Shown here one piece after another: positions 19,236-31,933 of a DNA stretch of 32,000 bases. The position numbers and the translations under genes are program-made. Positions within the stretch are counted from its first letter, which is position 1, and each line of letters opens with the position of its first letter. The notes beneath the pieces are model-generated. The model made no database searches. It was not told where the DNA came from and saw nothing but the letters and a program-made list of their open reading frames with translations. This DNA comes from Nitrososphaerota archaeon (GTDB lineage: Archaea; Thermoproteota; Nitrososphaeria; Nitrososphaerales; Nitrosopumilaceae), in the NCBI GenBank assembly GCA_021325595.1, contig JAJPGX010000015.1, positions 20,824-52,823 of the forward strand. Direction: 5' to 3'.

Positions 19236-19775
19236 TCAATATTCTAGGATAGAAATGATAGTATCAAGTAATTCCTGAATTCTTGCCTTTATACCACTTA
19301 TTACTTGAGAAATTTCCATCTTTGTTATCCTTGCTTCATGAATACGTGCATTCTTTGATGCATAATCCATTCCATGATTAGTGATAAAATTATTGAATTT
19401 ATCTAAAAATTGACTTCCAATTATTATTTGGTCCTTATTTTCAAGGTCATTTACTGAATGATATACAGTAGATTTACCAAAAAGATTTACTATATCAGGT
19501 GGTAATGATATTGGATTGCCATAAAGATCATAAAACTTCCAATCAGTTTTTCTATAAGATGGTAAGTTTTGATATAGCTCATCTCTTGTCTTATACTTTA
19601 TAAGATATCCATTAATTTCAAGATCCAACCAAGTGTTCTTATCAGAAATTTGGAGAGTTTTGCATATGTTTTTACAAACTAATAAGATGTCATGAATTGA
19701 TTTTCTTTCATCCAATAGATCCACACTAGTATTTTTAACAATCTGGAGAATTTCCTCTTTTTTATTTGAGCTCAA
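19236..19775 (-). CDS. Hypothetical protein with an AbiTii-like N-terminal pattern
   Basis: 179 aa with a TTG start. ILLVCKNICKTLQISDKNTWLDLEINGY resembles the AbiTii N-terminal signature (..a..la..L....l..W...ELnGY) as I remember it. A PD...ENK string (PPDIV...DLENKD) is also present. The ORF is co-directional with, and 54 nt downstream of, the Dam gene. Confidence 0.55.
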   Translation of the reverse strand: MSSNKKEEILQIVKNTSVDLLDERKSIHDILLVCKNICKTLQISDKNTWLDLEINGYLIKYKTRDELYQNLPSYRKTDWKFYDLYGNPISLPPDIVNLFGKSTVYHSVNDLENKDQIIIGSQFLDKFNNFITNHGMDYASKNARIHEARITKMEISQVISGIKARIQELLDTIISILEY

Positions 19776-19829: not shown

Positions 19830-20690
19830 TTAATAATTTTTAATCAGTAATTCGATATGGCCAGTACGCTTTCCTGAAACAGAATTTATAAATCTGTTTG
19901 CATTTATTTCGATTATTCCTTTTGAAAATTCTTGATATAGATGCATAATTTCCTTTGATTTTGAATTAGATAGTAGGATCTTTGCTCCTTTTTTATCAAG
20001 GGATTTGAATTTTCCAAATAATCTTTCTTGGTCTTTATAGTTAAAATCGCTGTCTGTATAGCTTGTAAAATTAGCGGTGTTGCTAACTGGTTGATAGGGA
20101 GGATCAAGATAGACAAAATCACCTTTCTCTACATTCTTTAGTGCGTCTTCGAAATCATGATGCTTGATGGATATATCTTTTGATTGAAGCGTATAATGAA
20201 CAGCTAGAAGGTTTTCTTTATTCACAATGTTTGGATTGACATATTTGCCTAATGGTACATTGAATTTTCCTTTGCTATTTACTCGATAAAGACCATTAAA
20301 ACAAGTTTTATTGAGAAATAACAATCTAGATACCTTATCAACTTGATTTTTTGGATTGGTATCTCTTACCTTATAATAATAGACACTAGGATTTTTGAAG
20401 TAACTTGTAGAATGTGATTCTAGTGATTCGATGAGTTCTTTTATTTTATCTCTAATTGTGATATAGGATAAAACTAGTTCTGAGTTAAGATCTGAAACAA
20501 ACCACTTTACTTGTTTTTTTTGTATCACTAAATGGAAAAATACAGCTCCGCCACCTAGAAATGGTTCAAAATATCTATTGAATTCATCAGGAATATGCTT
20601 TTCAATTATTGGTAGTAGTTGTCTTTTTCCGCCAGCCCATTTGACAAATGGTTTTGGTACAACTGACAATATCTGATATTGTTGCTTCAA
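19830..20690 (-). CDS. dam: DNA adenine methyltransferase (Dam/MethyltransfD12 family, N6-adenine)
   Basis: 286 aa. FVKWAGGKRQLLPII, the SAM-binding FEPFLGGGAVFF and the catalytic VYLDPPY are present. TTG start. Confidence 0.9.
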   Translation of the reverse strand: MKQQYQILSVVPKPFVKWAGGKRQLLPIIEKHIPDEFNRYFEPFLGGGAVFFHLVIQKKQVKWFVSDLNSELVLSYITIRDKIKELIESLESHSTSYFKNPSVYYYKVRDTNPKNQVDKVSRLLFLNKTCFNGLYRVNSKGKFNVPLGKYVNPNIVNKENLLAVHYTLQSKDISIKHHDFEDALKNVEKGDFVYLDPPYQPVSNTANFTSYTDSDFNYKDQERLFGKFKSLDKKGAKILLSNSKSKEIMHLYQEFSKGIIEINANRFINSVSGKRTGHIELLIKNY

Positions 20691-20795: not shown

Positions 20796-20826
20796 TAGAA
20801 TAAAGAAAGTAAAAGGAAAGGGGTTT
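20796..20826 (-). terminator. Pyrimidine-rich putative terminator after amoA
   Basis: The minus strand directly after the stop reads AAAACCCCTTTCCTTTTACTTTCTTTATTCT. T/C tracts of this kind act as archaeal termination signals. Confidence 0.45.
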
Positions 20827-21477
20827 TTAATCCCACTTACTCCAAGCTGCCATCCATCTGTAGGTCCATGTTGTTAGTTTGCAACCTAATGCAGTCATTG
20901 TTACTGTCAAAACTGCAGAGGCGCCTGAACCTAATGCGACCGGACTATCGTAGAACTTTCCTACTTGAGGTTCTATCGGAGTCATGTATGGAGGCAATGT
21001 AGTTCTTGGGTATTTGAAAGCCATCTCAAGCGGATCATCAATTGTGATCAAGTTGATCATGTTGAACAATCCCATTGACATTCCACAAAGCACACCGCCC
21101 ATTAGGATCAAAGAGTGTTTGTTCTTCTTTGTTGCCCAATATACCAAGTCCATCAATATTGCAGATGGGATCCACATTGGTACTACGATGAAGCTATATG
21201 GATATCCTAGAGAGAACCACGCACCTTTTGCAATCCATGTATACACTGTCATTATCAGCGCATAGTATGTTGCTGTTCCTGGAACACCAGTGAACGTTAG
21301 GTAATATGCTGCACCGACTGCGAGCATTAATGATTGTGATAAAGTGAATATCACAAACGATGTCCATGCCCAGTCTGTGTAGAATATGTAGTCTCCTGCG
21401 TTGATTGTCAACAAGGTTGAGTTGACTGCGACCACTACTATAAACAAGTAGTGAGTACATCGTCTTAGCCAGACCAT
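20827..21477 (-). CDS. amoA: Ammonia monooxygenase subunit A (archaeal)
   Basis: 216 aa. MVWLRRCTHYLFIVVVAVNSTLLTINAGDYIFYTDWAWTSF...TWTYRWMAAWSKWD is nearly identical in long stretches to Nitrosopumilus-type AmoA as I remember it. Confidence 0.98.
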   Translation of the reverse strand: MVWLRRCTHYLFIVVVAVNSTLLTINAGDYIFYTDWAWTSFVIFTLSQSLMLAVGAAYYLTFTGVPGTATYYALIMTVYTWIAKGAWFSLGYPYSFIVVPMWIPSAILMDLVYWATKKNKHSLILMGGVLCGMSMGLFNMINLITIDDPLEMAFKYPRTTLPPYMTPIEPQVGKFYDSPVALGSGASAVLTVTMTALGCKLTTWTYRWMAAWSKWD

Positions 21478-21510: not shown

Positions 21511-21563
21511 TTTATGATGTACGAGATCAGTACTTAATGAATACCATATGGTAAAGGTCAAAT

Positions 21564-21592
21564 CAATAAAAGAAAAGATGAAAAGGGGGTTT
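21564..21592 (-). terminator. Pyrimidine-rich putative terminator after amoX
   Basis: The minus strand after the stop reads AAACCCCCTTTTCATCTTTTCTTTTATTG. Confidence 0.45.
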
Positions 21593-21955
21593 CTATCCGA
21601 AGAAGAAGCTATCAGTCACAATTGTTGCAACAGCGATTGCTGCGATCACACCAGCCACTAGACCGTTGTATGTCTTTGCTTTATCAGTGCCTTCGGTTAC
21701 TACTTTGACACTAAACAAGTAGCCGATAGCCTCAATGATTGTAAGTACAGTTAAAGCAAAGTGTGCGCTTGGCGGTGGATATGCCCATGGATAGTATACC
21801 ACTGCAACGGCAACTCCTGCCCATGTTCCTACCCAGAGTGCAATAAATGCACCTGTGATGATTCCTATCATGTTTTCAGCACGTCTACCTATCATCTTGG
21901 AAACATCGGAACTAGAAGCTCCGCCACCTGTACCGAATCCTTTTGGTAAGGTCAT
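21593..21955 (-). CDS. amoX: AmoX, the small membrane protein conserved between amoA and amoC in ammonia-oxidising archaea
   Basis: 120 aa, Gly/Ala-rich with hydrophobic helices. Its position between amoA and amoC is the canonical place of amoX in Nitrosopumilus-type clusters. Confidence 0.82.
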   Translation of the reverse strand: MTLPKGFGTGGGASSSDVSKMIGRRAENMIGIITGAFIALWVGTWAGVAVAVVYYPWAYPPPSAHFALTVLTIIEAIGYLFSVKVVTEGTDKAKTYNGLVAGVIAAIAVATIVTDSFFFG

Positions 21956-22026: not shown

Positions 22027-22062
22027 CGAAGAAAAATAAGAAAAAGATGCGCTAGTGCGCGT
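22027..22062 (-). terminator. Hairpin plus T-tract putative terminator after amoC
   Basis: The minus strand reads ACGCGCACTAGCGCATCTTTTTCTTATTTTTCTTCG. A 6-bp GC-rich stem (22047-22062, including one G-U pair) is followed by T-rich tracts. Confidence 0.5.
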
Positions 22063-22626
22063 CTATGGGATTGATCTACTGTACAATTTGCCTTCTAGAG
22101 CCATCTTGTACATTTCTGCAACGTATGGATTCTCACCTGGTGTTTCTGCTCCAAGTTCGACAAGTCGTGCATATACTCTTACTACATAGGCAAGTGCACC
22201 CATGAAAGCAACGACGACACCCATGTTAAACATCCAGTGGTTTGGAACTGCGAAGATCTCCTCTACATACCAAAAGTGCCACATTTCATTGACACCAATT
22301 GTGAACATGGTTGCTAGATAACCAAGGATGGTCATCTTAAGACCGGTGTTCATTGAATTGTTTGGACCTCTCAGAATTGGTACCTTTCTGTCATAGATAG
22401 CAACTGAAGCCCAACCTAATGGGAGTGCTATAAAGTGACTGTAAAGCCACCAGTGTGCTGGTGTGAAGGCACTATCTCTGATTGATGTTTGGTGTAGTGA
22501 TCCATCTACGAAGTTATCGACCTCTACTGATGCAGCGATTGATCCCAATGCGATGATGATTAGCCAGATCTTTTTCAATCTCTGGATCTCAACTTCTTTT
22601 GGAATAAGTGCCGGCATTTGTGCCAT
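22063..22626 (-). CDS. amoC: Ammonia monooxygenase subunit C (archaeal)
   Basis: 187 aa. MAQMPALIPKEVEIQRLKKIW...SLHQTSIRDSAFTPAHWWLYSHF...EMWHFWYVEE matches archaeal AmoC. Confidence 0.97.
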   Translation of the reverse strand: MAQMPALIPKEVEIQRLKKIWLIIIALGSIAASVEVDNFVDGSLHQTSIRDSAFTPAHWWLYSHFIALPLGWASVAIYDRKVPILRGPNNSMNTGLKMTILGYLATMFTIGVNEMWHFWYVEEIFAVPNHWMFNMGVVVAFMGALAYVVRVYARLVELGAETPGENPYVAEMYKMALEGKLYSRSIP

Positions 22627-22891: not shown

Positions 22892-23458
22892 ATGGTCGAT
22901 AAGAAGTTTATTGTAGCTGCGATAGGTGTAATCGTTGCACTTGGAGCAGTTGGACCATCATTTGCACAAATGTTCCAACAAGCAGAAGCCCACGGTGTTC
23001 AGGCGCAACTTCAGAGTCGTTTCGTTAGGATAGATGATGAGACTTGGTCAAAACAATCTGTTCAGACAGGCGATACACTGACGGTGTCTGGTAAATTCGT
23101 AAGTCTCGTCAACAGAGACTTGAGAGGATGGTACACCGTGTATGGTGACTCTCCAAACGCTGGTAACAGATGGGAGATTGTAGCAAGGGATCCACCTGGT
23201 AACGTAATCGATATACCAGCAAACTCAGTGATTCCATACAAACTAACAATCAGAGCATTAGAACCATCAGTATACCACATGCACACACAGCTTAACGTAG
23301 CAAGCATCGGCCCAGGTCTAGGTCCAGGACAAACAGTCGTGGTAACAGGCAATCCAATTGTAAAGCCAATTCCATATACAAACGTGATGTATCAATCAAT
23401 TGTAATTGGAGTAGGATATGCAATTACTTTTGCAACAAGACCTTGGCAAGTGATTTAA
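22892..23458 (+). CDS. amoB: Ammonia monooxygenase subunit B (archaeal short form)
   Basis: 188 aa. A signal peptide ending AEA is followed by HGVQAQLQSRF, so a mature N-terminal His is expected, as at the copper site of the pMMO/AMO family. There is a single cupredoxin-like domain plus a C-terminal TM helix. Confidence 0.97.
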   Translation: MVDKKFIVAAIGVIVALGAVGPSFAQMFQQAEAHGVQAQLQSRFVRIDDETWSKQSVQTGDTLTVSGKFVSLVNRDLRGWYTVYGDSPNAGNRWEIVARDPPGNVIDIPANSVIPYKLTIRALEPSVYHMHTQLNVASIGPGLGPGQTVVVTGNPIVKPIPYTNVMYQSIVIGVGYAITFATRPWQVI

Positions 23459-23490
23459 AAAATCACCCCCTCTCTTTTCATTTTCTAAAT
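23459..23490 (+). terminator. Pyrimidine-rich putative terminator after amoB
   Basis: AAAATCACCCCCTCTCTTTTCATTTTCTAAATC follows the stop directly. Its core is nearly identical to the sequence after amt. Confidence 0.5.
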
Positions 23491-23504: not shown

Positions 23505-23786
23505 TCAGGACATTCCTTTTTTTGTTTCAATAAATTCCAAAGTCCACTTTCGAACATAATAGACAGGAATTCCAATTGTAATTGGCAATGATAAAATCAT
23601 ACCATAGGGCCATGATATGCTCATTTGGATGACCAAGTCAATTAAAAAAATAGCAACTTCAAGAAAAATGCCTTGTATTAATTTGTGAATTCTATAGAAT
23701 GCGATTAATTGAGTCACAAAAGTAGGTATAATTGCAAGTATCATCTGAGTCCTGAGAAATTTTTTTGTGTTATCTTGTGTATCCAT
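23505..23786 (-). CDS. Small membrane protein (about 3 helices), hypothetical
   Basis: 93 aa, hydrophobic throughout, convergent with amoB. Confidence 0.55.
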   Translation of the reverse strand: MDTQDNTKKFLRTQMILAIIPTFVTQLIAFYRIHKLIQGIFLEVAIFLIDLVIQMSISWPYGMILSLPITIGIPVYYVRKWTLEFIETKKGMS

Positions 23787-23900
23787 GTCATTTCAACCCA
23801 GAGTTCTTGTGCAAGTCTATTATTCAAGTATTCTGAAATTCACTTCTGGAAATTTAATGAGGTTTGATATTGAATAATTATCTCTGTGCAAAATCGGGGT

Positions 23901-24425
23901 TTAGAGAGTTTTCTCTGTTTTTTTGATTTGTTCTATCAGTTTTTCAATTCCAATCTTACTGTATACATAGTGACCAACACCATTGATTGTTTCTCCTCGT
24001 ACTTCGTTAAAAGTTAAAATTTGATTATAGGTCTGTTCTACATAAAATAAATTATTATCAAATGCTATTGCTTTTGTTTCGACTGTCAATTTAGGATAAT
24101 TATTTGGATTGTGTCTATTCCCATACATGTCTGGCATCATTTCTCTCAATCTGCCTGCCATATCTGAACCATAAGGAATACAAACTAGAGTTTTATCGTT
24201 AGGATGTATGACACCTTTAGTAATTATATCTTCAAGGAATTTGCGGTAAAATATTAATTCATTTTTAACTAATCGTTTCACATTATTCTTAAATCTTCTA
24301 TTCTTTAGAAACTCGGTAAGCCAATAACTACCAAACGTTGCTCCTATGCCAACTAGCACTCCTATGGTAATATCGTATTTCCCAAGTTCAGCGATAGGCT
24401 GACTCGTAGCTGTTGCATTAATCAA
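23901..24425 (-). CDS. Hypothetical protein with an N-terminal TM helix
   Basis: 174 aa with a TTG start, so the start is uncertain. One helix (ITIGVLVGIGATFGSYWL) is followed by a soluble domain. Confidence 0.55.
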   Translation of the reverse strand: MINATATSQPIAELGKYDITIGVLVGIGATFGSYWLTEFLKNRRFKNNVKRLVKNELIFYRKFLEDIITKGVIHPNDKTLVCIPYGSDMAGRLREMMPDMYGNRHNPNNYPKLTVETKAIAFDNNLFYVEQTYNQILTFNEVRGETINGVGHYVYSKIGIEKLIEQIKKTEKTL

Positions 24426-24530
24426 ATTACAATTTCTTAGATGCTAACTTAATCAGGTTTTCTACTTGTTTTGACCTAAATCCAATTTAATCCCTGCTTG
24501 TTAATCTGACTGATTTTAATTTCTAGAAAA

Positions 24531-25220
24531 TCAATATTGTATTTTAAAGTCATCAAAATAGGCTTCAGTGTCTGCTTTGGTCCATAATCCCATTTGACCT
24601 GATACGTAATTATGATCATTTGCTCGAATTAGAAGATGATTGTCAAGCGTAGCGGCAATTCCTTGTGATGAAACTATAGCTTTCAGAGAATGCCACTCTC
24701 CAGGCGCAATGGAGATCTGTTTATCGTAGCTACAGATAAGAAATTCCGGTGTTTGCTTGCATAAAGATAATCTGTTTGCCATGGAATCTGCCATTAAAAC
24801 AAAATAATGTTGGTCATCGATAAATCTAACGATCATGCCGACTGATCTTGCTTTTTCACCTGATACGATTTTGAATTTCATCGTTATGTTTGCATTATCG
24901 GTACTAGGTGAGTTAGGAAGTATTTGCAGATGAGTATTAGTAACATTATCAATGATGGGTAATTTTACTAGTACGTTAGGTTTTGATGGTGAGTCCGAAA
25001 CAGTTTGTACTACCCAAGAGGGCGTCTTATCAGTTGACATTGAAGCAAATCCTTGTGGCGATGTTCCGTTTTGATATGAATCAAAGTCCCAAGTTACTGT
25101 ATGCTTGTATGGAAAAGCGATTTGTGTGTTGTAAAATGCTATAATTATCCCTATTACAGTAATACCAGCATAGATAGCTAGACGTTTTTTTCTATTTAGT
25201 CGTGGTTTTTCTGTTGACAA
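24531..25220 (-). CDS. Membrane-anchored protein with a concanavalin-A/LamG-like (DUF1080-like) jelly-roll domain
   Basis: 229 aa with an N-terminal TM helix. The pattern PQGF...WVVQ...VGMIVRFIDDQHYFVL...GEWHSLKAIVSSQGIAATLDNHLL...GQMGLWTKADTEAYFDDFKI follows the LamG/DUF1080 layout as I remember it. Confidence 0.62.
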   Translation of the reverse strand: MSTEKPRLNRKKRLAIYAGITVIGIIIAFYNTQIAFPYKHTVTWDFDSYQNGTSPQGFASMSTDKTPSWVVQTVSDSPSKPNVLVKLPIIDNVTNTHLQILPNSPSTDNANITMKFKIVSGEKARSVGMIVRFIDDQHYFVLMADSMANRLSLCKQTPEFLICSYDKQISIAPGEWHSLKAIVSSQGIAATLDNHLLIRANDHNYVSGQMGLWTKADTEAYFDDFKIQY

Positions 25221-25282
25221 GAATATCTACAGGTCTTGCAATCCATGATCGATATAAAAGTACGATTTTGAAAAAACATTCA

Positions 25283-25483
25283 TTATTTTTTTTCACGTTT
25301 TCGCGGTTTTTGTTTGCTACGCCACTTATCAAATCCCCAACGAGTTGCACTAAAAGCACCAACTGCAAAGAAAAAAAATCCAACCATGATGAAGAGCCAA
25401 CTTTTTACATAAAGTCCAAAGAGAAAACCAATTATTGCACTAACAAATTGTAACACTACAAATACTGCCCATCTATCTACCAT
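25283..25483 (-). CDS. Small membrane protein (two helices, basic tail)
   Basis: 66 aa with an ATG start: MVDRWAVFVVLQFVSAIIGFLFGLYVKSWLFIMVGFFFFAVGAF...KQKPRKREKK. Preferred over the overlapping ORFs 25192..25383 and 25202..25453. Confidence 0.5.
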   Translation of the reverse strand: MVDRWAVFVVLQFVSAIIGFLFGLYVKSWLFIMVGFFFFAVGAFSATRWGFDKWRSKQKPRKREKK

Positions 25484-25551
25484 TCCTAAGTCTCAGATCC
25501 ACATACTATTTACCGTTTCTTAAATTATACAAAATACTAATTTGCTGTCAA

Positions 25552-25580
25552 CATAAAAATGAAAAAGAGAGGGGATTAAA
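25552..25580 (-). terminator. Pyrimidine-rich putative terminator after amt
   Basis: The minus strand after the stop reads TTTAATCCCCTCTCTTTTTCATTTTTATG. It shares CCCCTCTCTTTT(T)CATTTT with the amoB 3' region. Confidence 0.5.
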
Positions 25581-27068
25581 CTACTCTGCAAATTGAGAGT
25601 ATGCTCTTTCGCCTACTTGCGACAAGTCAAGTCCTATTTCTTCTTCTTTTGGTGTAACTCTAACACCACCTGGCCAAATCGCATCTTGTATTCTCCAGAT
25701 AATGTATGTTATACCAAATGACCAAGCTGCACCAAATCCTGCACCTGCAGCATTGATTGCTTCTTGCATTGGATTTCCAAAGAAGAGACCGTCGTGTCCA
25801 AATGGATTGATCCTAGTTTCACTGAATGCACCTGTTAGAAGAGCACCTACAACTCCTCCCATTCCGTGCACACCCCAAGTATCCAAAGCATCATCTATTC
25901 TTGCTCTGTTCTTGATAAGTACACAGTAGAAGCATATTGTTGCACATGCAAATCCTACTATTATTGATGCCCATGTTCCGATGAAACCAGAAGCTGGTGT
26001 AATTGCTACAAGTCCAGCTACCGCACCGTTTGCAGCTCCAATAGCACTAGTTTTTCCTGTATGTGCCCAGCTTAAGAACATCCACCACATTGCTGCAACC
26101 GCAGTTGCGATGTTTGTATTCTGGAATGCTTGTGTTTCAAGGAAACCTGCTGAACCAGCACTTCCTGGGTTGAAACCAAACCAACCAAACCATAGTAGTA
26201 TTGCGCCTAGCATTACAAGCGGAATTGAATGTGGCTCAAATGGTGCTTTACCATATCCTATTCTCCTTCCTAAGAACATCGCAGTCGCTAATCCTGCAAA
26301 TCCTGATGTGATATGAATTACAGTTCCACCCGCAAAGTCTTCCGCACCCATGTTTGCTAACCAACCTAACGCAGTTCCTTGACTTCCAAGGGACCAGTTT
26401 GCATGACCTACAACATCATAGATGAATGTGGTCCAGAGTACAATATGTATTAAGAATGCACTCATCTTCAACCTATCAGCATAACCAGCTATAGCTAGTG
26501 ATGGAGTGATTGCAGCGAACATGAGCTGGAACATCACAAAGGCGATATGAGGAATGGTTACAGCATACACATCAGCCGGTGCTATGTGTGACACGTTGTT
26601 TAGACCTGTCCACTCAAAGGTTCCGATAAATCCAACTGAATCGGCAGATGGACCAAACATAATAGAGTATCCAAAGACCACCCACTGAATACTAACAATT
26701 GCATATGTCAAGAATGCTTGTAGTATAACAGTTAGAGCGTGTTTTCTTCGTGTAAGACCTCCATACAAAAATCCTACACCGCCGGGAGTCATGATCATGA
26801 CGAAGACTGCTGCTGCGTACATGAATGTGGTATCTCCCGTATCAATACATGGACCACTCTTGTTGACGTCTGTCATTACTTGTGTACAATGGATTTCAGA
26901 TACGTCCTTGTCTGCAGGAAGTTTGTTTAGGTCACCAAATTGTGCCTGGGCATCTTGAATTGCTGTAAATCCAGATAACCCTACCAATAATCCCGCTAGT
27001 ACAAAAACTACCGGCCATTTGTGTTTCTTTACTATCTGCAATGGCGTTTGAGAAATTGTTTCCAGCAT
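25581..27068 (-). CDS. amt: Ammonium transporter (Amt/MEP/Rh family)
   Basis: About 495 aa. Typical Amt blocks are present: DFAGGTVIHITSGFAGLA, FGWFGFNPGSAG and DTWGVHGMGGVVGALLTG. The track start at 27080 is a TTG; the ATG at 27068 lies 24 nt downstream of a TATA-like box. Confidence 0.95.
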   Translation of the reverse strand: MLETISQTPLQIVKKHKWPVVFVLAGLLVGLSGFTAIQDAQAQFGDLNKLPADKDVSEIHCTQVMTDVNKSGPCIDTGDTTFMYAAAVFVMIMTPGGVGFLYGGLTRRKHALTVILQAFLTYAIVSIQWVVFGYSIMFGPSADSVGFIGTFEWTGLNNVSHIAPADVYAVTIPHIAFVMFQLMFAAITPSLAIAGYADRLKMSAFLIHIVLWTTFIYDVVGHANWSLGSQGTALGWLANMGAEDFAGGTVIHITSGFAGLATAMFLGRRIGYGKAPFEPHSIPLVMLGAILLWFGWFGFNPGSAGSAGFLETQAFQNTNIATAVAAMWWMFLSWAHTGKTSAIGAANGAVAGLVAITPASGFIGTWASIIVGFACATICFYCVLIKNRARIDDALDTWGVHGMGGVVGALLTGAFSETRINPFGHDGLFFGNPMQEAINAAGAGFGAAWSFGITYIIWRIQDAIWPGGVRVTPKEEEIGLDLSQVGERAYSQFAE

Positions 27069-27088
27069 CTTTTCGTACAAGTGCTTCG

Positions 27089-27116
27089 CATCTATAAAAG
27101 GTATTTTATCCTAAAA
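27089..27116 (-). promoter_or_regulatory. amt promoter core; copy 1 of a perfect 28-nt direct repeat
   Basis: The plus strand reads CATCTATAAAAGGTATTTTATCCTAAAA and the minus strand TTTTAGGATAAAATACCTTTTATAGATG. The TTTATA element sits 24 nt upstream of the amt ATG at 27068. The sequence is identical to 29588-29615. Confidence 0.6.
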
Positions 27117-27122
27117 TTATTT

Positions 27123-27180
27123 TTTTATGATATTATAATAGATCTTTGATCTGTAAACAAAAAATCTCGATATCATAAAA
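27123..27180. repeat. Nested palindromes upstream of amt: an 11-bp perfect inverted repeat flanking AGATC-TTT-GATCT
   Basis: TTTTATGATAT (27123-27133) and ATATCATAAAA (27170-27180) are exact reverse complements. AGATCTTTGATCT lies at 27140-27152. Confidence 0.8.
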
Positions 27181-27232
27181 TTATAAAAAATTCTAAAAAA
27201 AATTATTATACAAGCTAAATGACACCTGATAT

Positions 27233-27394
27233 ATGGCAGAAGCAGGAATAAACATTTTCATTGCAACAGGCGTAGCTCTAGCAATGACAGTTGCAATTTA
27301 TTTTGGAGAAAGAGCCCATAGAAAGAACTTAGAAAAGAAAGGAAAGACATGGGGTACCTATGGCATGAAGTACGAAGGCCATCACAACCTCTAG
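27233..27394 (+). CDS. Possible small membrane protein (53 aa), divergent from amt
   Basis: Below the track cutoff. My translation is MAEAGINIFIATGVALAMTVAIYFGERAHRKNLEKKGKTWGTYGMKYEGHHNL, one TM helix with a basic tail, and the region is richer in GC than the surrounding spacer. Confidence 0.45.
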   Translation: MAEAGINIFIATGVALAMTVAIYFGERAHRKNLEKKGKTWGTYGMKYEGHHNL

Positions 27395-27473
27395 AAGAAA
27401 AATTTCCTTAACCATCTTTTTGTAATAACAGCATCAGATAGATTGATTTAATCACTTGCGGCGAATTATATCA

Positions 27474-27965
27474 ATGAGAAAGAATTTAGAAGAAGGAGAA
27501 CATATTGTGGCTTCATTGCCTCAGGTCTGGGGAATTGCATTAGGATTTAGAGGCTTTTTTCACAAAAATAAAGAAGGAGTTTTAGCGTTAACAGACAGGA
27601 ATTTAATTTTCACACCTCGTTTCTTGTATATTACTCCAAAAGAAAAAGGAAAATATTTTGAAGACGATAAAGCAAAAATTGCTAAAATTTCCAATTACAC
27701 AGAAGATGATCTAGATGAAGATATCTCTGAGAATTCAAAATCATCTTGGGTGATACCCCTTGAATCAATAAGAGATGTGGAAATAACAATATCACGTAAA
27801 GTAAGTTTTCTAAGGGTAACCTATACAGAAGATGGAAAAACAAGGAAATGTGATTTTGGAATTGCTAAAACCGTTGCAAGTTATCCTCAACGTCAACCAC
27901 TAGTATTCAAAAATTTAGATTGGACGTTATGGCTTGGTTTAATCAAATCAATGATAAAACTATAA
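27474..27965 (+). CDS. Hypothetical protein (possibly PH/GRAM-like fold)
   Basis: The track ORF starts at a TTG (27456); the ATG at 27474 gives MRKNLEEGEHIV... GVLALTDRNLIFTP is reminiscent of bacterial PH-like domains. This is weak. Confidence 0.55.
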   Translation: MRKNLEEGEHIVASLPQVWGIALGFRGFFHKNKEGVLALTDRNLIFTPRFLYITPKEKGKYFEDDKAKIAKISNYTEDDLDEDISENSKSSWVIPLESIRDVEITISRKVSFLRVTYTEDGKTRKCDFGIAKTVASYPQRQPLVFKNLDWTLWLGLIKSMIKL

Positions 27966-27976
27966 ATATTTAAAAA

Positions 27977-28456
27977 TCACGGATTTTGCCGAGTATTTTG
28001 TTGTAATATTTTTCTAGCTTGTGATGAAATAATATCGTCATCATGATCTTGACCTTGTAGAAATTTTACATCAGTTATCTTTTTTTTATACTTGAATATT
28101 TCCAATTCATATTTACCATCTTTCTTTGGTTGGTACAATGCTAGCTTTAGTAATGCAGATCCATTGTATTCCTCTTTAAATTGTAAATAGTGTTCAGAAA
28201 TTTTTAGAGATTTTAAAAAAACCCAGGTTGTCATTAATATACGCGATGGGCTATACAAAACAAGTTCATAGTTAGGATCTTCTTCAAAAAACCTTATTTT
28301 TATTTCATCATCTGGCCAATATTTGATAATTTCGCTCCATGTGTTTACAAGTTTTTTTCGATCATCAAATAAGAGATAGACGGTTGGGCGAACATCATAT
28401 ACATGGTAACCCATACCTATAAAATCATGATACCACTCAATCTTAGATTCAGACAT
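27977..28456 (-). CDS. Hypothetical protein
   Basis: 159 aa with an ATG start. No recognisable family. About 31% GC by hand count of 28101-28200. Confidence 0.55.
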   Translation of the reverse strand: MSESKIEWYHDFIGMGYHVYDVRPTVYLLFDDRKKLVNTWSEIIKYWPDDEIKIRFFEEDPNYELVLYSPSRILMTTWVFLKSLKISEHYLQFKEEYNGSALLKLALYQPKKDGKYELEIFKYKKKITDVKFLQGQDHDDDIISSQARKILQQNTRQNP

Positions 28457-28530
28457 TCAATTCCACATTGCATGTATTATATTTAATAATTAAACTTGGA
28501 AAAACACCACAATTAAGATATTAATGCCCA

Positions 28531-28764
28531 ATGGTTTTTCAAGTTGTGTCAAATCGAAAACGAATAGAAGAGATAATGAAAATGAGTAAAGAGGAACTAT
28601 ATCAATATCTACGAAGAGAGGACAACACCATTCAAGAATCAGACAAAATAGAGATGAAACCATTTGAACATGGAATTAAAATATTTTATTTCCATAAAGA
28701 TTCAGAAAAACCATTCAAAACAAGAGTATATCTGAATCAGGATGAGAGTGAATCATTAAAGTAA
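28531..28764 (+). CDS. Hypothetical small protein
   Basis: 77 aa, ATG start, charged composition, divergent from 27977..28456. Confidence 0.45.
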   Translation: MVFQVVSNRKRIEEIMKMSKEELYQYLRREDNTIQESDKIEMKPFEHGIKIFYFHKDSEKPFKTRVYLNQDESESLK

Positions 28765-28813
28765 ATACAACTGATGTTAACAAAATAGAAATTAAAATTA
28801 AAAAAGTGTGTGG

Positions 28814-29590
28814 TTATAGCAAGGATGTTTTTGGTTTTAGTTCACGCCACTTGCCACGAGCCCAGAAACCCCACTTTTGTTTGTCTTCGTTTGGATAGTA
28901 ACATTTTTCGTTGTGAGGGCAACTCATACATCTTTCAGATGGTTCAATGGCTGGTGCAATATTGTTTTTCAACAGTGTATTGAGAATTTTTGCTCTTCGT
29001 TTTGTTTCGTGTAGTAGCTTTTCACTTTTTGGAACAATGAATTCCATCTCATTTCCTTCTTTGTCAAAGTAAATGATCACACCTTCGGGTTTGTCAAACA
29101 TGTATAGATATGAATTCAGTTGTATGAAATGCTCTGGATGTGGCATTTCTGGCAATGTTTCTGAACTTCTAAAGAGCATCACTGTTTCGTCTTCAACTCT
29201 GTCAGCTCTACCGACAATTTTTACGTTAGAGCCTGCATCGAGTTGACCTTCTAATGGTTTTTCCATTATACTCAGCGCACTCTTTTCCATTATCTTTGAC
29301 ACCATCTGTTTGTGTGTACTTTCTGATGGATCCTTACGGTCAAGGTATGCGTTCCTTAGACAACCGCTTAGCTCGTCTACAGAGATTTTTCCCTCGTCAG
29401 CTATTGTAGGATTAATTGCAGCAAAAACTTGCTCAATCACATCATACACATCTACCCTAGCTGGGGTATCAGTTGCTGAACGATAGTTTTCAATTCCTTC
29501 CTTAATTTTTTCTTGAACTTTTCCAACAATCTTTGCTTTTTTGTAGCTAGCTTTGGATTCTGTCATTCTTTTGAAAAGGGAGTTTTTCAT
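28814..29590 (-). CDS. Cas4/RecB-like PD-(D/E)xK-fold protein with a four-Cys (Fe-S type) pattern; stand-alone
   Basis: The N-terminal Cys context is ELSGCLRNAYL. GRADRV is motif II-like, HFIQLNSYLYM is QhxxY-like, and CMSCPHNEKC is the C-terminal C-x2-C-x5-C. The likely start is the internal ATG at 29566 (MTESKASYKK), 25 nt downstream of the repeated TATA-like box. Confidence 0.68.
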   Translation of the reverse strand: MKNSLFKRMTESKASYKKAKIVGKVQEKIKEGIENYRSATDTPARVDVYDVIEQVFAAINPTIADEGKISVDELSGCLRNAYLDRKDPSESTHKQMVSKIMEKSALSIMEKPLEGQLDAGSNVKIVGRADRVEDETVMLFRSSETLPEMPHPEHFIQLNSYLYMFDKPEGVIIYFDKEGNEMEFIVPKSEKLLHETKRRAKILNTLLKNNIAPAIEPSERCMSCPHNEKCYYPNEDKQKWGFWARGKWRELKPKTSLL

Positions 29591-29615
29591 CTATAAAAGG
29601 TATTTTATCCTAAAA
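29588..29615 (-). promoter_or_regulatory. Copy 2 of the perfect 28-nt direct repeat (an amt-type promoter core) at the 5' end of the Cas4-like gene
   Basis: The plus strand CATCTATAAAAGGTATTTTATCCTAAAA is identical to 27089-27116. In both copies, 9 diverged nt are followed by a shared TTTATGATA. Confidence 0.6.
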
Positions 29616-29691
29616 AAAAGAATTTATGATAATATTTCTTATTTTATAATATTTTAAACAATGATTTTAATAAAAGCATTTCATAGGTGCA

Positions 29692-30045
29692 ATGGATCCA
29701 ACTATGAAAAAAATAGAAGCAGTAATCCCAGAAGAAAGATTGGAGAACGTGTTTGAAGCATTGTTAGACTCTGGTGCCTCAGGCTTCAGTTATTTTACTG
29801 TAAAAGGTAGAGGAAGCAGGGCAAGACCAGTTGTTTCATCCGGAAGGGGCGGTCGATTTGAATCGGCATATAATGTCAACTCTTGCATCATGGTTGTTGT
29901 AGCAGACAACATGGTAAACAAGGTGGTTGATACGATAACCTCTCATGCAAGTACCGGAATGGCAGGTGAAGGTAAGATATTCGTCTACAATGTAGAAGAT
30001 GCTATAGATGTAGGAACAAAGAAACACGGCGACGCTTCAATTTAA
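29692..30045 (+). CDS. PII-family nitrogen regulatory protein (GlnB/GlnK-like) with a divergent T-loop
   Basis: MKKIEAVIPEERLENVFEAL... and the B-loop-like TGMAGEGKIFVYNVEDAIDV fit PII. The probable start is the ATG at 29704. The T-loop region reads GRGSRARPVVSSGRGGRFESAYNV. Confidence 0.88.
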   Translation: MDPTMKKIEAVIPEERLENVFEALLDSGASGFSYFTVKGRGSRARPVVSSGRGGRFESAYNVNSCIMVVVADNMVNKVVDTITSHASTGMAGEGKIFVYNVEDAIDVGTKKHGDASI

Positions 30046-30122: not shown

Positions 30123-30641
30123 ATGTTCTGGCCTGGGATGGGAGATCCTACAAAACGTAAAAAGGCACTCAGATTTCTTGCAATATCAGCTGCTGTAGGC
30201 GTAGCCGTTGTACTATTAAGTACAACAATCATTGCACAGGTAAAGGATAAAGATCCTCTATATCACAAGTGCCTTAATGGATTAGATATTCAATACCAAG
30301 TGTCTGCAACATTAGAAGTTCAAGTCGATGGCAAACCGTGGGTAAAACCAGCTCCCACCACTACAGACGTTCCAAAAGATTGTGAAAGATCCATGATTTT
30401 CTCAGATGATGGAACTATTCATGGAGCCTGGGTAAAGAAGTACCCGTTTGAAGTAGGCCAATTCCTATGGATGGCAAACTTTCCTATCCGTGATATGGAT
30501 GAAACAAAATCAAGAATCTATGCAAACGGAATAGAATCAACTGACTTTATTCATACTGTAGTACAGGACGGCGTACATTACAAAGCTGAATTTGTATCCA
30601 AGAATGAAGGTGCGCCTAGCTTTACACCTCCAAAGAACTAG
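30123..30641 (+). CDS. Membrane-anchored extracytoplasmic hypothetical protein
   Basis: 172 aa with an N-terminal helix (FLAISAAVGVAVVLLSTTII) and a soluble domain with two Cys. About 40% GC by hand count. Confidence 0.62.
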   Translation: MFWPGMGDPTKRKKALRFLAISAAVGVAVVLLSTTIIAQVKDKDPLYHKCLNGLDIQYQVSATLEVQVDGKPWVKPAPTTTDVPKDCERSMIFSDDGTIHGAWVKKYPFEVGQFLWMANFPIRDMDETKSRIYANGIESTDFIHTVVQDGVHYKAEFVSKNEGAPSFTPPKN

Positions 30642-30666: not shown

Positions 30667-30698
30667 AAAATTAAAAATAAGGAAAAAGGGTTTGGAGT
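30667..30698 (-). terminator. Pyrimidine-rich putative terminator after ORF 30699..30968
   Basis: The minus strand reads ACTCCAAACCCTTTTTCCTTATTTTTAATTTT, the same style as the amo and amt 3' regions. Confidence 0.4.
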
Positions 30699-30968
30699 TT
30701 ACCAGTACTTTCCGTTATCTGGTATCAGACCAATGCCTTCTCTCTCAAAGTGTTTCTCGAGTTCGGAAACCCATCTTTCTCTAGTGTCTCCACCAAGACC
30801 GTGTACTCTGAGCCAGAATGCAATTACTCCGAGAAGGAATACTGCAAACATGATGGTTGCAAATATGTATACCATCACGTCGTAAAATAGCGGGTCGTAG
30901 TTTGGACCTATCTGACCTGCAAAGTTGGACAGCATACCTACGAGCATAGCGAATAACGCGCTCATCAT
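30699..30968 (-). CDS. Small two-helix membrane protein with amo-like base composition (candidate AMO-associated subunit)
   Basis: 89 aa: MMSALFAMLVGMLSNFAG...VMVYIFATIMFAVFLLGVIAFWL, followed by a charged tail. About 48% GC by hand count of 30721-30820, like the amo genes. Confidence 0.7.
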   Translation of the reverse strand: MMSALFAMLVGMLSNFAGQIGPNYDPLFYDVMVYIFATIMFAVFLLGVIAFWLRVHGLGGDTRERWVSELEKHFEREGIGLIPDNGKYW

Positions 30969-31038
30969 TATTCAAAACGAATTAGGTGCGATATATACAT
31001 TTCTGCGTGTAACGAAAAACGTAGATCAGAGTAGATAT

Positions 31039-31064
31039 GGAATAAAATAAGAAAAAGAGAAGAA
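31039..31064 (-). terminator. Pyrimidine-rich putative terminator after ORF 31065..31376
   Basis: The minus strand reads TTCTTCTCTTTTTCTTATTTTATTCC. It shares the 15-mer TCTTTTTCTTATTTT with the amoC 3' region. Confidence 0.4.
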
Positions 31065-31376
31065 TTAACGAGCTCTCTTTGCTTTTTCAGCTTGTTTGGC
31101 CCTTACTACGAATGCAACAAAGATTCCGCCGAATACTGCTCCTGCGATGATTGTTGCACCGATGACACCGTTTGCATCAAGATATGGCGTACCAGAACCA
31201 GCGTGTGGATTGTTTTGTACAGCTGCAATTCTTGCACGCGCCAGTTTTAACTGCTCTTCAAGTGTAGTTGTACCACCACCGCCCACACCTGCATATTGTG
31301 CTGCAGCTAGCGGGGCAAATGATGAGGCCACGAAGAGAGCCAAAAGTACGGTTCCAATAATTATTGGTTTTTTCAT
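31065..31376 (-). CDS. Small secreted, C-terminally anchored membrane protein with amo-like base composition (candidate AMO-associated subunit)
   Basis: 103 aa. Signal peptide MKKPIIIGTVLLALFVASSFAPLAAA, a Gly-rich linker, an amphipathic segment, a C-terminal TM helix and a basic tail. About 47% GC by hand count of 31081-31180. The antisense ORF 31096..31398 is low-complexity. Confidence 0.7.
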   Translation of the reverse strand: MKKPIIIGTVLLALFVASSFAPLAAAQYAGVGGGGTTTLEEQLKLARARIAAVQNNPHAGSGTPYLDANGVIGATIIAGAVFGGIFVAFVVRAKQAEKAKRAR

Positions 31377-31483
31377 ATTAGTACCTACTTGTGGATGACG
31401 CCTGTAGATATTTAACTTTTATGTAAAGTATCAGATGCGATCTCCCAAGTAACATTTATGTTTGCTCAAATAACAATCGGCTC

Positions 31484-31933
31484 GTGGGACGACTTCATTC
31501 ACATAGACATGGCAAATCACATTCGGTAAGGCCAGTTACTCCAAATACACCTACATGGGTAAAACAGAGTCCTTCTGAAATCGAGGAACTCATAGTAAAA
31601 TATTCTAAAGATGGCTTGAGTTCAAGTGAAATAGGAATAAAGCTTCGCGATCAACATGCTATACCCTTAACAAAACAGATGGTCAAAAAATCCGTAACTG
31701 AGATACTTGAAGAAAAGGGAGTCAAGCCAGAAATGCCAGAAGATTTGAATAATTTAGTGGTAAAAGCACTTGGTTTACAAAAACATCTAAAGGCAAACAA
31801 GTCAGATAGAAGAAACGTCAGATCACTTGAGCTTTTAGAGGCAAAAGTTCACAGGTTATCTACACACTACAAAAAGATCGGCCGCATACCCAAAACTTGG
31901 AAATATAAGGCAGTCATAGCTCAACTTGAGTAA
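31484..31933 (+). CDS. rps15: 30S ribosomal protein S15 (uS15; archaeal S15P/S13e type)
   Basis: 149 aa with a GTG start. MGRLHSHRHGKSHSVRP...PSEIEELIVKYSKDGLSSSEIGIKLRDQHAIP...RLSTHYKK matches archaeal uS15. Confidence 0.92.
   Translation: MGRLHSHRHGKSHSVRPVTPNTPTWVKQSPSEIEELIVKYSKDGLSSSEIGIKLRDQHAIPLTKQMVKKSVTEILEEKGVKPEMPEDLNNLVVKALGLQKHLKANKSDRRNVRSLELLEAKVHRLSTHYKKIGRIPKTWKYKAVIAQLE

Follow-up and report, generated by a model that had tools for sequence, protein, structure and literature searches.

Which genes outside the primary amo cluster complete the ammonia monooxygenase (AMO) of an ammonia-oxidizing archaeon in which the known subunit genes are scattered? We addressed this question with a 32,000-nt stretch of contig JAJPGX010000015.1 (assembly GCA_021325595.1, positions 20,824 to 52,823; hereafter the window), whose source is a member of the Nitrosotalea clade of ammonia-oxidizing archaea (AOA). 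In addition to amoA, amoX, amoC and amoB, the window contains two small open reading frames (ORFs) about 7 kb and 12 genes from amoB, one of 89 aa (30699–30968; ORF89) and one of 103 aa (31065–31376; ORF103), both on the minus strand and both exactly as listed by the first-pass annotation. That annotation, made from the sequence alone, proposed that they encode AmoY and AmoZ, the proteins defined as archaeal AMO subunits by Hodgskiss et al. 2023 (PMC10030591). The proposal was supported by four independent lines, namely position, gene order, histidine positions and family unity, and we conclude with high confidence that ORF89 is AmoY and ORF103 is AmoZ, which together with AmoX complete the archaeal AMO (AmoABCXYZ). 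Both genes are already known, including the orthologues of Candidatus Nitrosotalea devanaterra, and the copies in the window are Nitrosotalea-type versions.

The identification begins with gene position. In N. devanaterra, amoA/X/C/B are listed as NDEV_1777–1780, amoY as NDEV_1792 and amoZ as NDEV_1793 (Table S16 in PMC10030591), and the order of the primary cluster in the window is that of NDEV_1777–1780. The closest relatives of ORF89 were found in a soil metagenome-assembled genome (99% identity) and in N. devanaterra (93%). At the N. devanaterra locus, amoB and the ORF89 orthologue are separated by exactly 11 ORFs, which places this orthologue at the position of NDEV_1792; it is followed by the ORF103 orthologue (74% identity), at the position of NDEV_1793, and then by rps15. 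The order ORF89, ORF103 and rps15 in the window is also that of Nitrososphaera viennensis, namely, amoY (NVIE_004540), amoZ (NVIE_004550) and rps15p (NVIE_004560) (PMC10030591), and rps15 is a conserved syntenic anchor adjoining amoZ across AOA. One element of the first-pass annotation did not apply: it had referred to linkage with amo genes in streamlined marine genomes, whereas in the Nitrosotalea clade a block of 11–12 genes separates amoYZ from amoABCX (PMC10030591). In the window, this block of approximately 12 genes (23505–30045; orf93, orf229, orf66, amt, orf53, the P-II gene, a Cas4-like nuclease gene and others) parts amoB from orf172, the neighbour of amoY, and is specific to the clade. 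In other Nitrosopumilaceae loci only one or two genes separate amoB and amoY: the amoY homologue is two ORFs from amoB in a Nitrosopumilus-type locus (L075), like Nmar_1506, and one ORF away in another Nitrosopumilales locus (L073). In Nitrososphaeraceae contigs, the ORF89 homologue (60–61% identity) directly adjoins amoB.

Further evidence, which does not depend on that ORF count, is provided by histidine positions and family relationships. In the cryo-EM preprint on the Nitrosopumilus maritimus AMO, where AmoY is called NmAmoF, the His residues given for this subunit are His55 and His73 (bioRxiv 10.64898/2026.08.31.748207). The 89-aa Nitrosopumilus homologues of ORF89 carry His at 55 and 73, with no further His in 10 of the 12 checked. 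The window protein carries His at 56 and 73; compared with the Nitrosopumilus-type AmoY it is longer by one residue at the N-terminus and has a loop one residue shorter, which accounts for the shift of the first position only. For ORF103, the 106-aa gene that lies between the amoY homologue and rps15 in Nitrososphaeraceae showed 33% identity (E 1e-13), and the two families matched over their full length in a profile–profile comparison (hhalign 99.5%, E 1.6e-22). AmoY evolves more slowly than AmoZ, with 61% versus 33% identity to the Nitrososphaeraceae proteins. We found 322 confirmed relatives of ORF89 in GTDB species genomes, the listed titles all being Nitrosopumilaceae, Nitrosotalea, Cenarchaeum or Nitrososphaerota, and 184 protein clusters; ORF103 gave 469 homologue clusters, all unnamed or from AOA. 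All organism-named protein matches were to Nitrososphaerota/Thaumarchaeota or were labelled only Thermoproteota. Within the searches made, AmoY appears conserved in, and restricted to, AOA.

Compared with published AmoY (NVIE_004540/Nmar_1506/NDEV_1792; 76G-FAM007700; AmoF), ORF89 falls within the same range of 82–93 aa, has a single transmembrane (TM) helix, adjoins amoZ near rps15 and belongs to a family found only in AOA with an invariant core and an invariant GIGLIPD tail. Apart from the longer distance to amoB, nothing substantive distinguishes the two. The published AmoY is small (~9–10 kDa) and mostly helical with one TM helix (PMC10030591), and ORF89 fits this description in size, helicity and single span: its product is of 10.2 kDa with an isoelectric point of 5.1, and a single Kyte–Doolittle TM window was detected at residues 26–60. 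The first-pass annotation had given it two helices. Three were predicted by AlphaFold2 (residues 2–17, 26–56 and 62–77), only one of which has TM-level hydrophobicity, so that of the earlier pair only one is a true TM helix and the other is an amphipathic or short helix at the N-terminus. The protein is thus laid out as a short N-terminal helix, a single TM helix (~26–56), a charged C-terminal cytoplasmic helix and the GIGLIPD tail, and the invariant core GQIGPxYDPLFYDVMxYIF (in pattern form GQ.GP.YDPLFYDVM.YIF) leads into the TM helix.

ORF103 fits the published AmoZ pattern of a signal peptide, a small soluble helical N-terminal part and a single C-terminal TM helix, in agreement with the signal peptide and C-terminal anchor assigned at first pass. 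The signal-peptide-like hydrophobic segment (residues ~3–28) ends in AAA|QY and is probably cleaved after AAA26, which would leave a mature protein of ~7.8 kDa. Next come one short helix on the periplasmic side (LEEQLKLARARIAAV), the conserved loop GSGTPYLD, a TM helix near the C-terminus in which small residues are frequent (GAVFGGIFVAFVV; TM region ~70–94) and a basic tail in the cytoplasm. The helices predicted by AlphaFold2 span residues 3–29, 39–55 and 71–102, and the conserved motifs of the family are AQY, LEEQL.LA, GSGTP and FGG. Published AmoZ (NVIE_004550/Nmar_1507/NDEV_1793; 76G-FAM007699; AmoG) shares with ORF103 the signal peptide, the helical periplasmic segment, the C-terminal TM helix and the basic tail, as well as the position between amoY and rps15. 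The N. viennensis protein differs in being of 123 aa, with a modelled disulfide and two helices, while ORF103 is Cys-free with one periplasmic helix.

Several observations weigh against the identification of the two ORFs as AmoY and AmoZ. A disulfide was predicted in the soluble domain of N. viennensis AmoZ (PMC10030591), and ORF103 has no Cys, so this bond cannot form; moreover, the mature periplasmic part of ORF103 has one predicted helix rather than two. No Cys was visible in the aligned Nitrosotalea-type and Nitrososphaeraceae-type AmoZ homologues, save in one divergent C-terminus, and the disulfide is therefore a feature of the N. viennensis lineage and does not define the family. The AlphaFold2 models were of moderate confidence only (pLDDT 69 for AmoY and 63 for AmoZ). 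The link to the named proteins is indirect, being positional and supplemented by cross-checks, and the NDEV assignment depends on our ORF count matching the gene calls of the annotators. The N. viennensis accessions for AmoY and AmoZ (A0A060HGB8 and A0A060HD33) were absent among the members of the clusters of ten homologues, and neither appeared when the Nitrososphaeraceae AmoZ-like protein served as query in a homology search. Finally, association with AmoABC and very high expression are known for orthologues and would extend to this organism by analogy; the window itself offers an indirect hint for amoY in its amoA-like GC content at third codon positions (GC3, 0.478) and its conserved promoter-like and terminator-like blocks.

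Pfam and NCBIfam scans of both ORFs returned sub-threshold noise only, and neither library holds a model for AmoX, AmoY or AmoZ. Searches of PDB sequences, for which amoB and amoX served as controls, were uninformative for both ORFs, the PDB set searched being without the N. maritimus AMO entry 9XJ2. The only near PDB sequence for ORF89 was FXYD, the gamma subunit of Na,K-ATPase (7E1Z chain C), an accessory subunit that is also single-span with a PFxYD-like motif before the TM helix; with E 0.47, at chance level and from a eukaryote, this was rejected as a coincidental resemblance. The first-pass annotation had also named 23505–23786 and 25283–25483 as lesser candidates for amo subunits. Both were discarded as AmoY or AmoZ: they occur in Nitrosotalea-clade loci only (44–72% identity), have a low GC content (31–35%) and match no family.

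To analyse the non-coding sequences, we used an alignment of ten Nitrosotalea-clade loci. The amoZ–amoY spacer could not be aligned except for the T tract after the amoZ stop and the block CAGAAATGTATATAT, located 23–37 nt upstream of the amoY ATG and invariant at 15 of 15 columns in the ten loci. This block is probably a separate amoY promoter (TATA box), and its spacing from the ATG suggests a leaderless or very short-leader amoY mRNA. Upstream of amoZ, 32–48 nt from the ATG, lies a block ACATAAAAGTTAAATAT resembling a B recognition element and TATA box, which is invariant as (A)AAAGTTAAATA while the flanks diverge, and a conserved AGGT, similar to a Shine–Dalgarno sequence, stands between it and the ATG. 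The footprint marks the amoZ block as a putative promoter. With a TATA-like block upstream and an oligo-T tract after the stop, amoY and amoZ each appear to form a monocistronic unit, an arrangement that would fit the different transcript levels of amoY and amoZ in N. maritimus (PMC10030591). No common promoter motif was found for the six amo genes by Hodgskiss et al. (PMC10030591).

The 3' regions contain the conserved motifs that the first-pass annotation had noticed. The 15-mer reported as common to the 3' regions of amoC and ORF103, TCTTTTTCTTATTTT, occurs exactly twice in the window (22033–22047 and 31044–31058), both copies on the minus strand; the distance from the preceding stop codon is 15 nt for amoC and 6 nt for ORF103. 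The CCC-T tract described after ORF89 is also real, and both kinds of motif are conserved across Nitrosopumilaceae. Pyrimidine-only runs of the form CCC[CT]{9,} were counted four times on both strands of the window, compared with approximately 1.0 expected from first-order Markov simulations, and each of them is located no more than ~10 nt past the stop codon of amoA, amoB, amt or ORF89; an interrupted run of this type follows amoX. In addition, a 21-nt motif, CCCCTCTCTTTT(T)CATTTT, recurs in near-identical form at the 3' ends of amoB and amt. The T tract of amoZ is kept directly after the stop in Nitrosotalea, Nitrosotenuis-like and Nitrosopumilus-like loci, while the core of the amoY tract, CTTTTTCCTT(A/C)TTTTT, is kept after the stop in approximately 65 loci, with related T tracts in Nitrosopumilus and Cenarchaeum loci. 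The mini-hairpin and T tract after amoC are conserved in related loci, the GCGC...GCGC stem recurring with a variable loop, and this arrangement is reminiscent of the intrinsic terminators of bacteria, an unusual feature in an archaeon. Scans for bacterial sigma-70 promoters and hairpin terminators gave counts at the level of shuffled sequence, which is the expected outcome in an archaeon, and were set aside. Conservation of the 3' tracts of amoY, amoZ, amoB and amoC reaches far outside the Nitrosotalea clade, and as the 3' motifs are kept in dozens of related genomes while their flanks diverge, they are not due to chance.

Intrinsic termination in archaea is generally signalled by oligo-T tracts, and the 15-mer and CCC-T tracts look like terminators of this kind. 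Alternatively, they might be dedicated to an ammonia-oxidation regulon, marking 3' ends or governing mRNA stability as an element that links amoY and amoZ with amoABCX and amt, rather than generic terminators. The restriction of CCC[CT]{9,} runs to the 3' sides of amoA, amoB, amt and amoY, the motifs held in common by amoB and amt and by amoC and amoZ, the retention of these motifs in many genomes with diverging flanks, and the lack of a C-rich prefix in the low-GC neighbouring genes would all agree with such a signal. However, T-rich runs also follow the P-II gene, orf258 and orf159, no one motif is common to all seven genes, and any gene with very high expression would be expected to end in a strong terminator; when two mismatches were allowed, the window count of the 15-mer was three, which was reached in 3 of 100 shuffles. 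We therefore regard a dedicated regulon signal as rather unlikely, and the tracts as candidate oligo-T terminators whose C-rich prefix may be amo/amt-specific or no more than a general trait of genes with very high expression.

With respect to function, orthologues of AmoY and AmoZ co-migrated with AMO in blue native polyacrylamide gel electrophoresis, were cross-linked to AmoABCX and showed co-expression (PMC10030591). The N. maritimus AMO cryo-EM map contains AmoF (= AmoY) and AmoG (= AmoZ), the heterodimer of which clamps between adjacent protomers and stabilises the trimer, both chains starting in the pseudo-periplasm and ending in the cytoplasm (bioRxiv 10.64898/2026.08.31.748207). The charge distribution of both window proteins predicts the same N-out, C-in orientation as that of AmoF/G in the preprint. 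From the orthology to the N. maritimus proteins, AmoY would insert N-terminus-out and C-terminus-in according to the positive-inside rule, and AmoZ would do so after cleavage of its signal peptide; the two would then pair as a clamp-like heterodimer between neighbouring AMO protomers, thereby stabilising the trimer, with the TM helix of AmoZ standing where bacterial AmoB has its second TM helix. In the preprint's description, the position of TM2 in bacterial AmoB/PmoB is filled by the TM helix of AmoG, and the inter-protomer contacts of the bacterial C-terminal cupredoxin domain are taken over by AmoF/G (bioRxiv 10.64898/2026.08.31.748207). This likeness is a functional analogy: AmoZ is a separate polypeptide with no cupredoxin fold, and the PDB search gave no match of either ORF to bacterial AmoB/PmoB chains and no detectable sequence homology. 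The published orthologues thus point to an assembly and scaffold role in AMO for the window proteins, and nothing in the window contradicts it.

Could these be AOA-specific small membrane proteins that lie beside rps15 for unrelated reasons and serve another complex, such as Amt, the S-layer or a respiratory complex? Their distance from amoB, with the P-II gene, amt and rps15 closer by, would allow this, as would the lack of any Pfam, NCBIfam or PDB family tying them to the copper-dependent membrane monooxygenases and the finding that AmoZ was uncorrelated with AmoABC in native gels of N. viennensis (PMC10030591). Such an assignment is nevertheless very improbable, given the cross-links of the orthologues to AmoABCX (PMC10030591), their presence in the N. 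maritimus AMO map, their location 0–2 genes from amoB in other Nitrosopumilaceae and in Nitrososphaeraceae loci, and their very high conservation (60–99% for AmoY).

Base composition agrees in outline with what was noticed at first pass, the hand-counted values of which were 0 to 5 points off. The GC content of 47–48% given for both ORFs was measured as 44.8% for ORF89 and 46.8% for ORF103, and the values of about 47% for amoA and about 48% for amt as 42.9% and 43.3%; those of about 28% for dam and 31% for the 159-aa ORF became 30.7% and 30.6%. The contrast itself held: amoA/X/C/B (42.9–45.7%), both ORFs and amt all stand above the window as a whole (35.4%) and neighbouring genes (30–33%). The GC3 of amoY is similar to that of amoA (0.447) and amoC (0.410), while that of amoZ is only 0.288, and the high GC content of amoZ therefore derives from its Ala/Gly-rich composition and not from codon choice. 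In codon-level comparison with related loci, the ratio of nonsynonymous to synonymous substitutions (dN/dS) was 0.02–0.13 for amoY and 0.10–0.16 within the clade for amoZ, at a synonymous divergence of 0.4 to >2. Both ORFs are real genes under strong purifying selection. That one or both might be chance open frames in GC-richer DNA, without protein expression, as their shortness, the absence of a family match and overlapping antisense ORFs of similar length could suggest, is effectively refuted by this substitution pattern and has next to no probability, since full-length homologues number in the hundreds, start and stop positions and the flanking promoter-like and terminator-like blocks are kept, and orthologues have been detected by proteomics.

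The features of the window are listed in Table 1. Directly beyond amoA lie the genes for a D12-class Dam methyltransferase and an AbiTii-domain protein, both of low GC content (28–31%), which suggests a defence or mobile insert beside the amo cluster; a Dam-like gene is also found beside amoA in the Nitrosopumilales locus L073. Within the block between amoB and orf172, orf174 has a counterpart in none of 84 related loci. The divergent neighbour of amt, orf53, encodes a 53-aa single-TM protein with 55–86% identity across Nitrosotalea-clade loci, and its GC content (41.4%; GC3 0.389) is unusually high for the window; this may be a further small membrane protein with high expression, perhaps one that associates with Amt. 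A 25-nt element, TTTTAGGATAAAATACCTTTTATAG, is located 5' of both amt and orf258, the latter encoding a PD-(D/E)XK/Cas4-like protein, and each copy lies within a 69-nt repeat. One or both copies are nearly unchanged in 46 Nitrosotalea-clade loci, and both are present wherever the flank reaches far enough. The element holds a TATA-like box with an in-frame ATG 23–24 nt downstream in both genes, and the annotated starts of amt and orf258 may therefore be too far upstream and their mRNAs leaderless; the two genes might share the element as a nitrogen-regulated promoter or operator. An Rfam scan of the whole window detected three tRNAs only, none of them close to amoY or amoZ.

Table 1. Genes and candidate signals of the window (positions counted from its first nucleotide)
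Feature	Position	Strand	Remarks
AbiTii-domain protein gene	19236–19775	-	neighbours dam
dam	19830–20690	-	D12 class; Pfam E 1e-62
amoA	20827–21477	-	Archaeal_AmoA match, E 7e-106
amoX	21593–21955	-	primary amo cluster
amoC	22063–22626	-	primary amo cluster
amoB	22892–23458	+	matches 4O65
orf174	23901–24425		
amt	25581–27080		Amt transporter
orf53	27233–27394	+	divergent from amt
P-II protein gene	29692–30045		
orf172	30123–30641	+	convergent with amoY
amoY (ORF89)	30699–30968	-	89 aa
amoZ (ORF103)	31065–31376	-	103-aa precursor
rps15	31484–31933	+	ribosomal protein S15/S13e; Pfam Ribosomal_S13_N and Ribosomal_S15
CCC-led pyrimidine run	20811–20823		after amoA
Interrupted CCC-type run	21560–21590		after amoX
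amoC 3' end	22033–22062	-	mini-hairpin GCGC-ACTA-GCGC (22049–22060), then TCTTTTTCTTATTTT
CCC-led pyrimidine run	23466–23479		after amoB
CCC-led pyrimidine run	25561–25574		after amt
CCC-led pyrimidine run	30679–30690		after amoY
amoY 3' tract CCCTTTTTCCTTATTTTTAATTTT	30667–30690	-	probable terminator
Invariant block CAGAAATGTATATAT	30991–31005	-	upstream of amoY
amoZ 3' pyrimidine/T tract TTCTTCTCTTTTTCTTATTTTATT	31041–31064	-	contains TCTTTTTCTTATTTT; probable oligo-T terminator
AGGT	31383–31386		Shine–Dalgarno-like
BRE/TATA-like block ACATAAAAGTTAAATAT	31408–31424	-	upstream of amoZ
25-nt element TTTTAGGATAAAATACCTTTTATAG	27092–27116; 29591–29615	-	5' of amt and orf258
69-nt repeat	27068–27136; 29567–29635		spans the TTTTAGGATAAAATACCTTTTATAG copies

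The convergent neighbour of amoY, orf172, may be of further interest with respect to AMO composition. Its product has an N-terminal TM anchor and a C-terminal domain of ~130 aa, without a match in Pfam or NCBIfam. The gene stands beside amoY in almost every Nitrosopumilaceae locus that includes this flank (39–80% identity), is 44% identical to the Nitrosopumilus-type neighbour of amoY and is missing from all four Nitrososphaeraceae loci. A new subunit, AmoE, has been described in the N. maritimus AMO (bioRxiv 10.64898/2026.08.31.748207). The topology and position of orf172 fit this description, and orf172 is tentatively assigned as a probable homologue of the gene that adjoins amoY in N. maritimus (by position, Nmar_1505), i.e. 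AmoE; the preprint names no AmoE locus tag or sequence, and its list of histidines names none in NmAmoE, yet the orf172 homologues contain His. Taken jointly, that the C-rich 3' motif, with the related CTCTTTTTCTTATTTT after amoC and amoZ, is a 3'-end or mRNA-stability signal of the regulon, and that orf172 is the Nitrosotalea orthologue of AmoE, is a possibility that we hold tentatively and would not favour. If orf172 is AmoE, the subunit would be Nitrosopumilaceae-wide, including acidophilic soil lineages, and not marine-specific.

In databases, the homologues of AmoY and AmoZ are nearly all named 'hypothetical protein', and spurious labels are also found, such as 'PDGLE domain-containing protein', 'Cu/Ag efflux pump CusA' and 'precorrin-4 methylase'. 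With such names and no Pfam or NCBIfam model, these subunits will keep being missed. Recognising them in a Nitrosotalea-type genome does no more than confirm the comparative genomics already published, and its practical value is for annotation. The promoter-like and terminator-like blocks conserved at each gene, together with the 3' motif of the amo and amt genes, could help to define the transcription signals of AOA. AmoY and AmoZ are needed for the true subunit composition of the archaeal AMO, with which nitrification begins in most soils and oceans.

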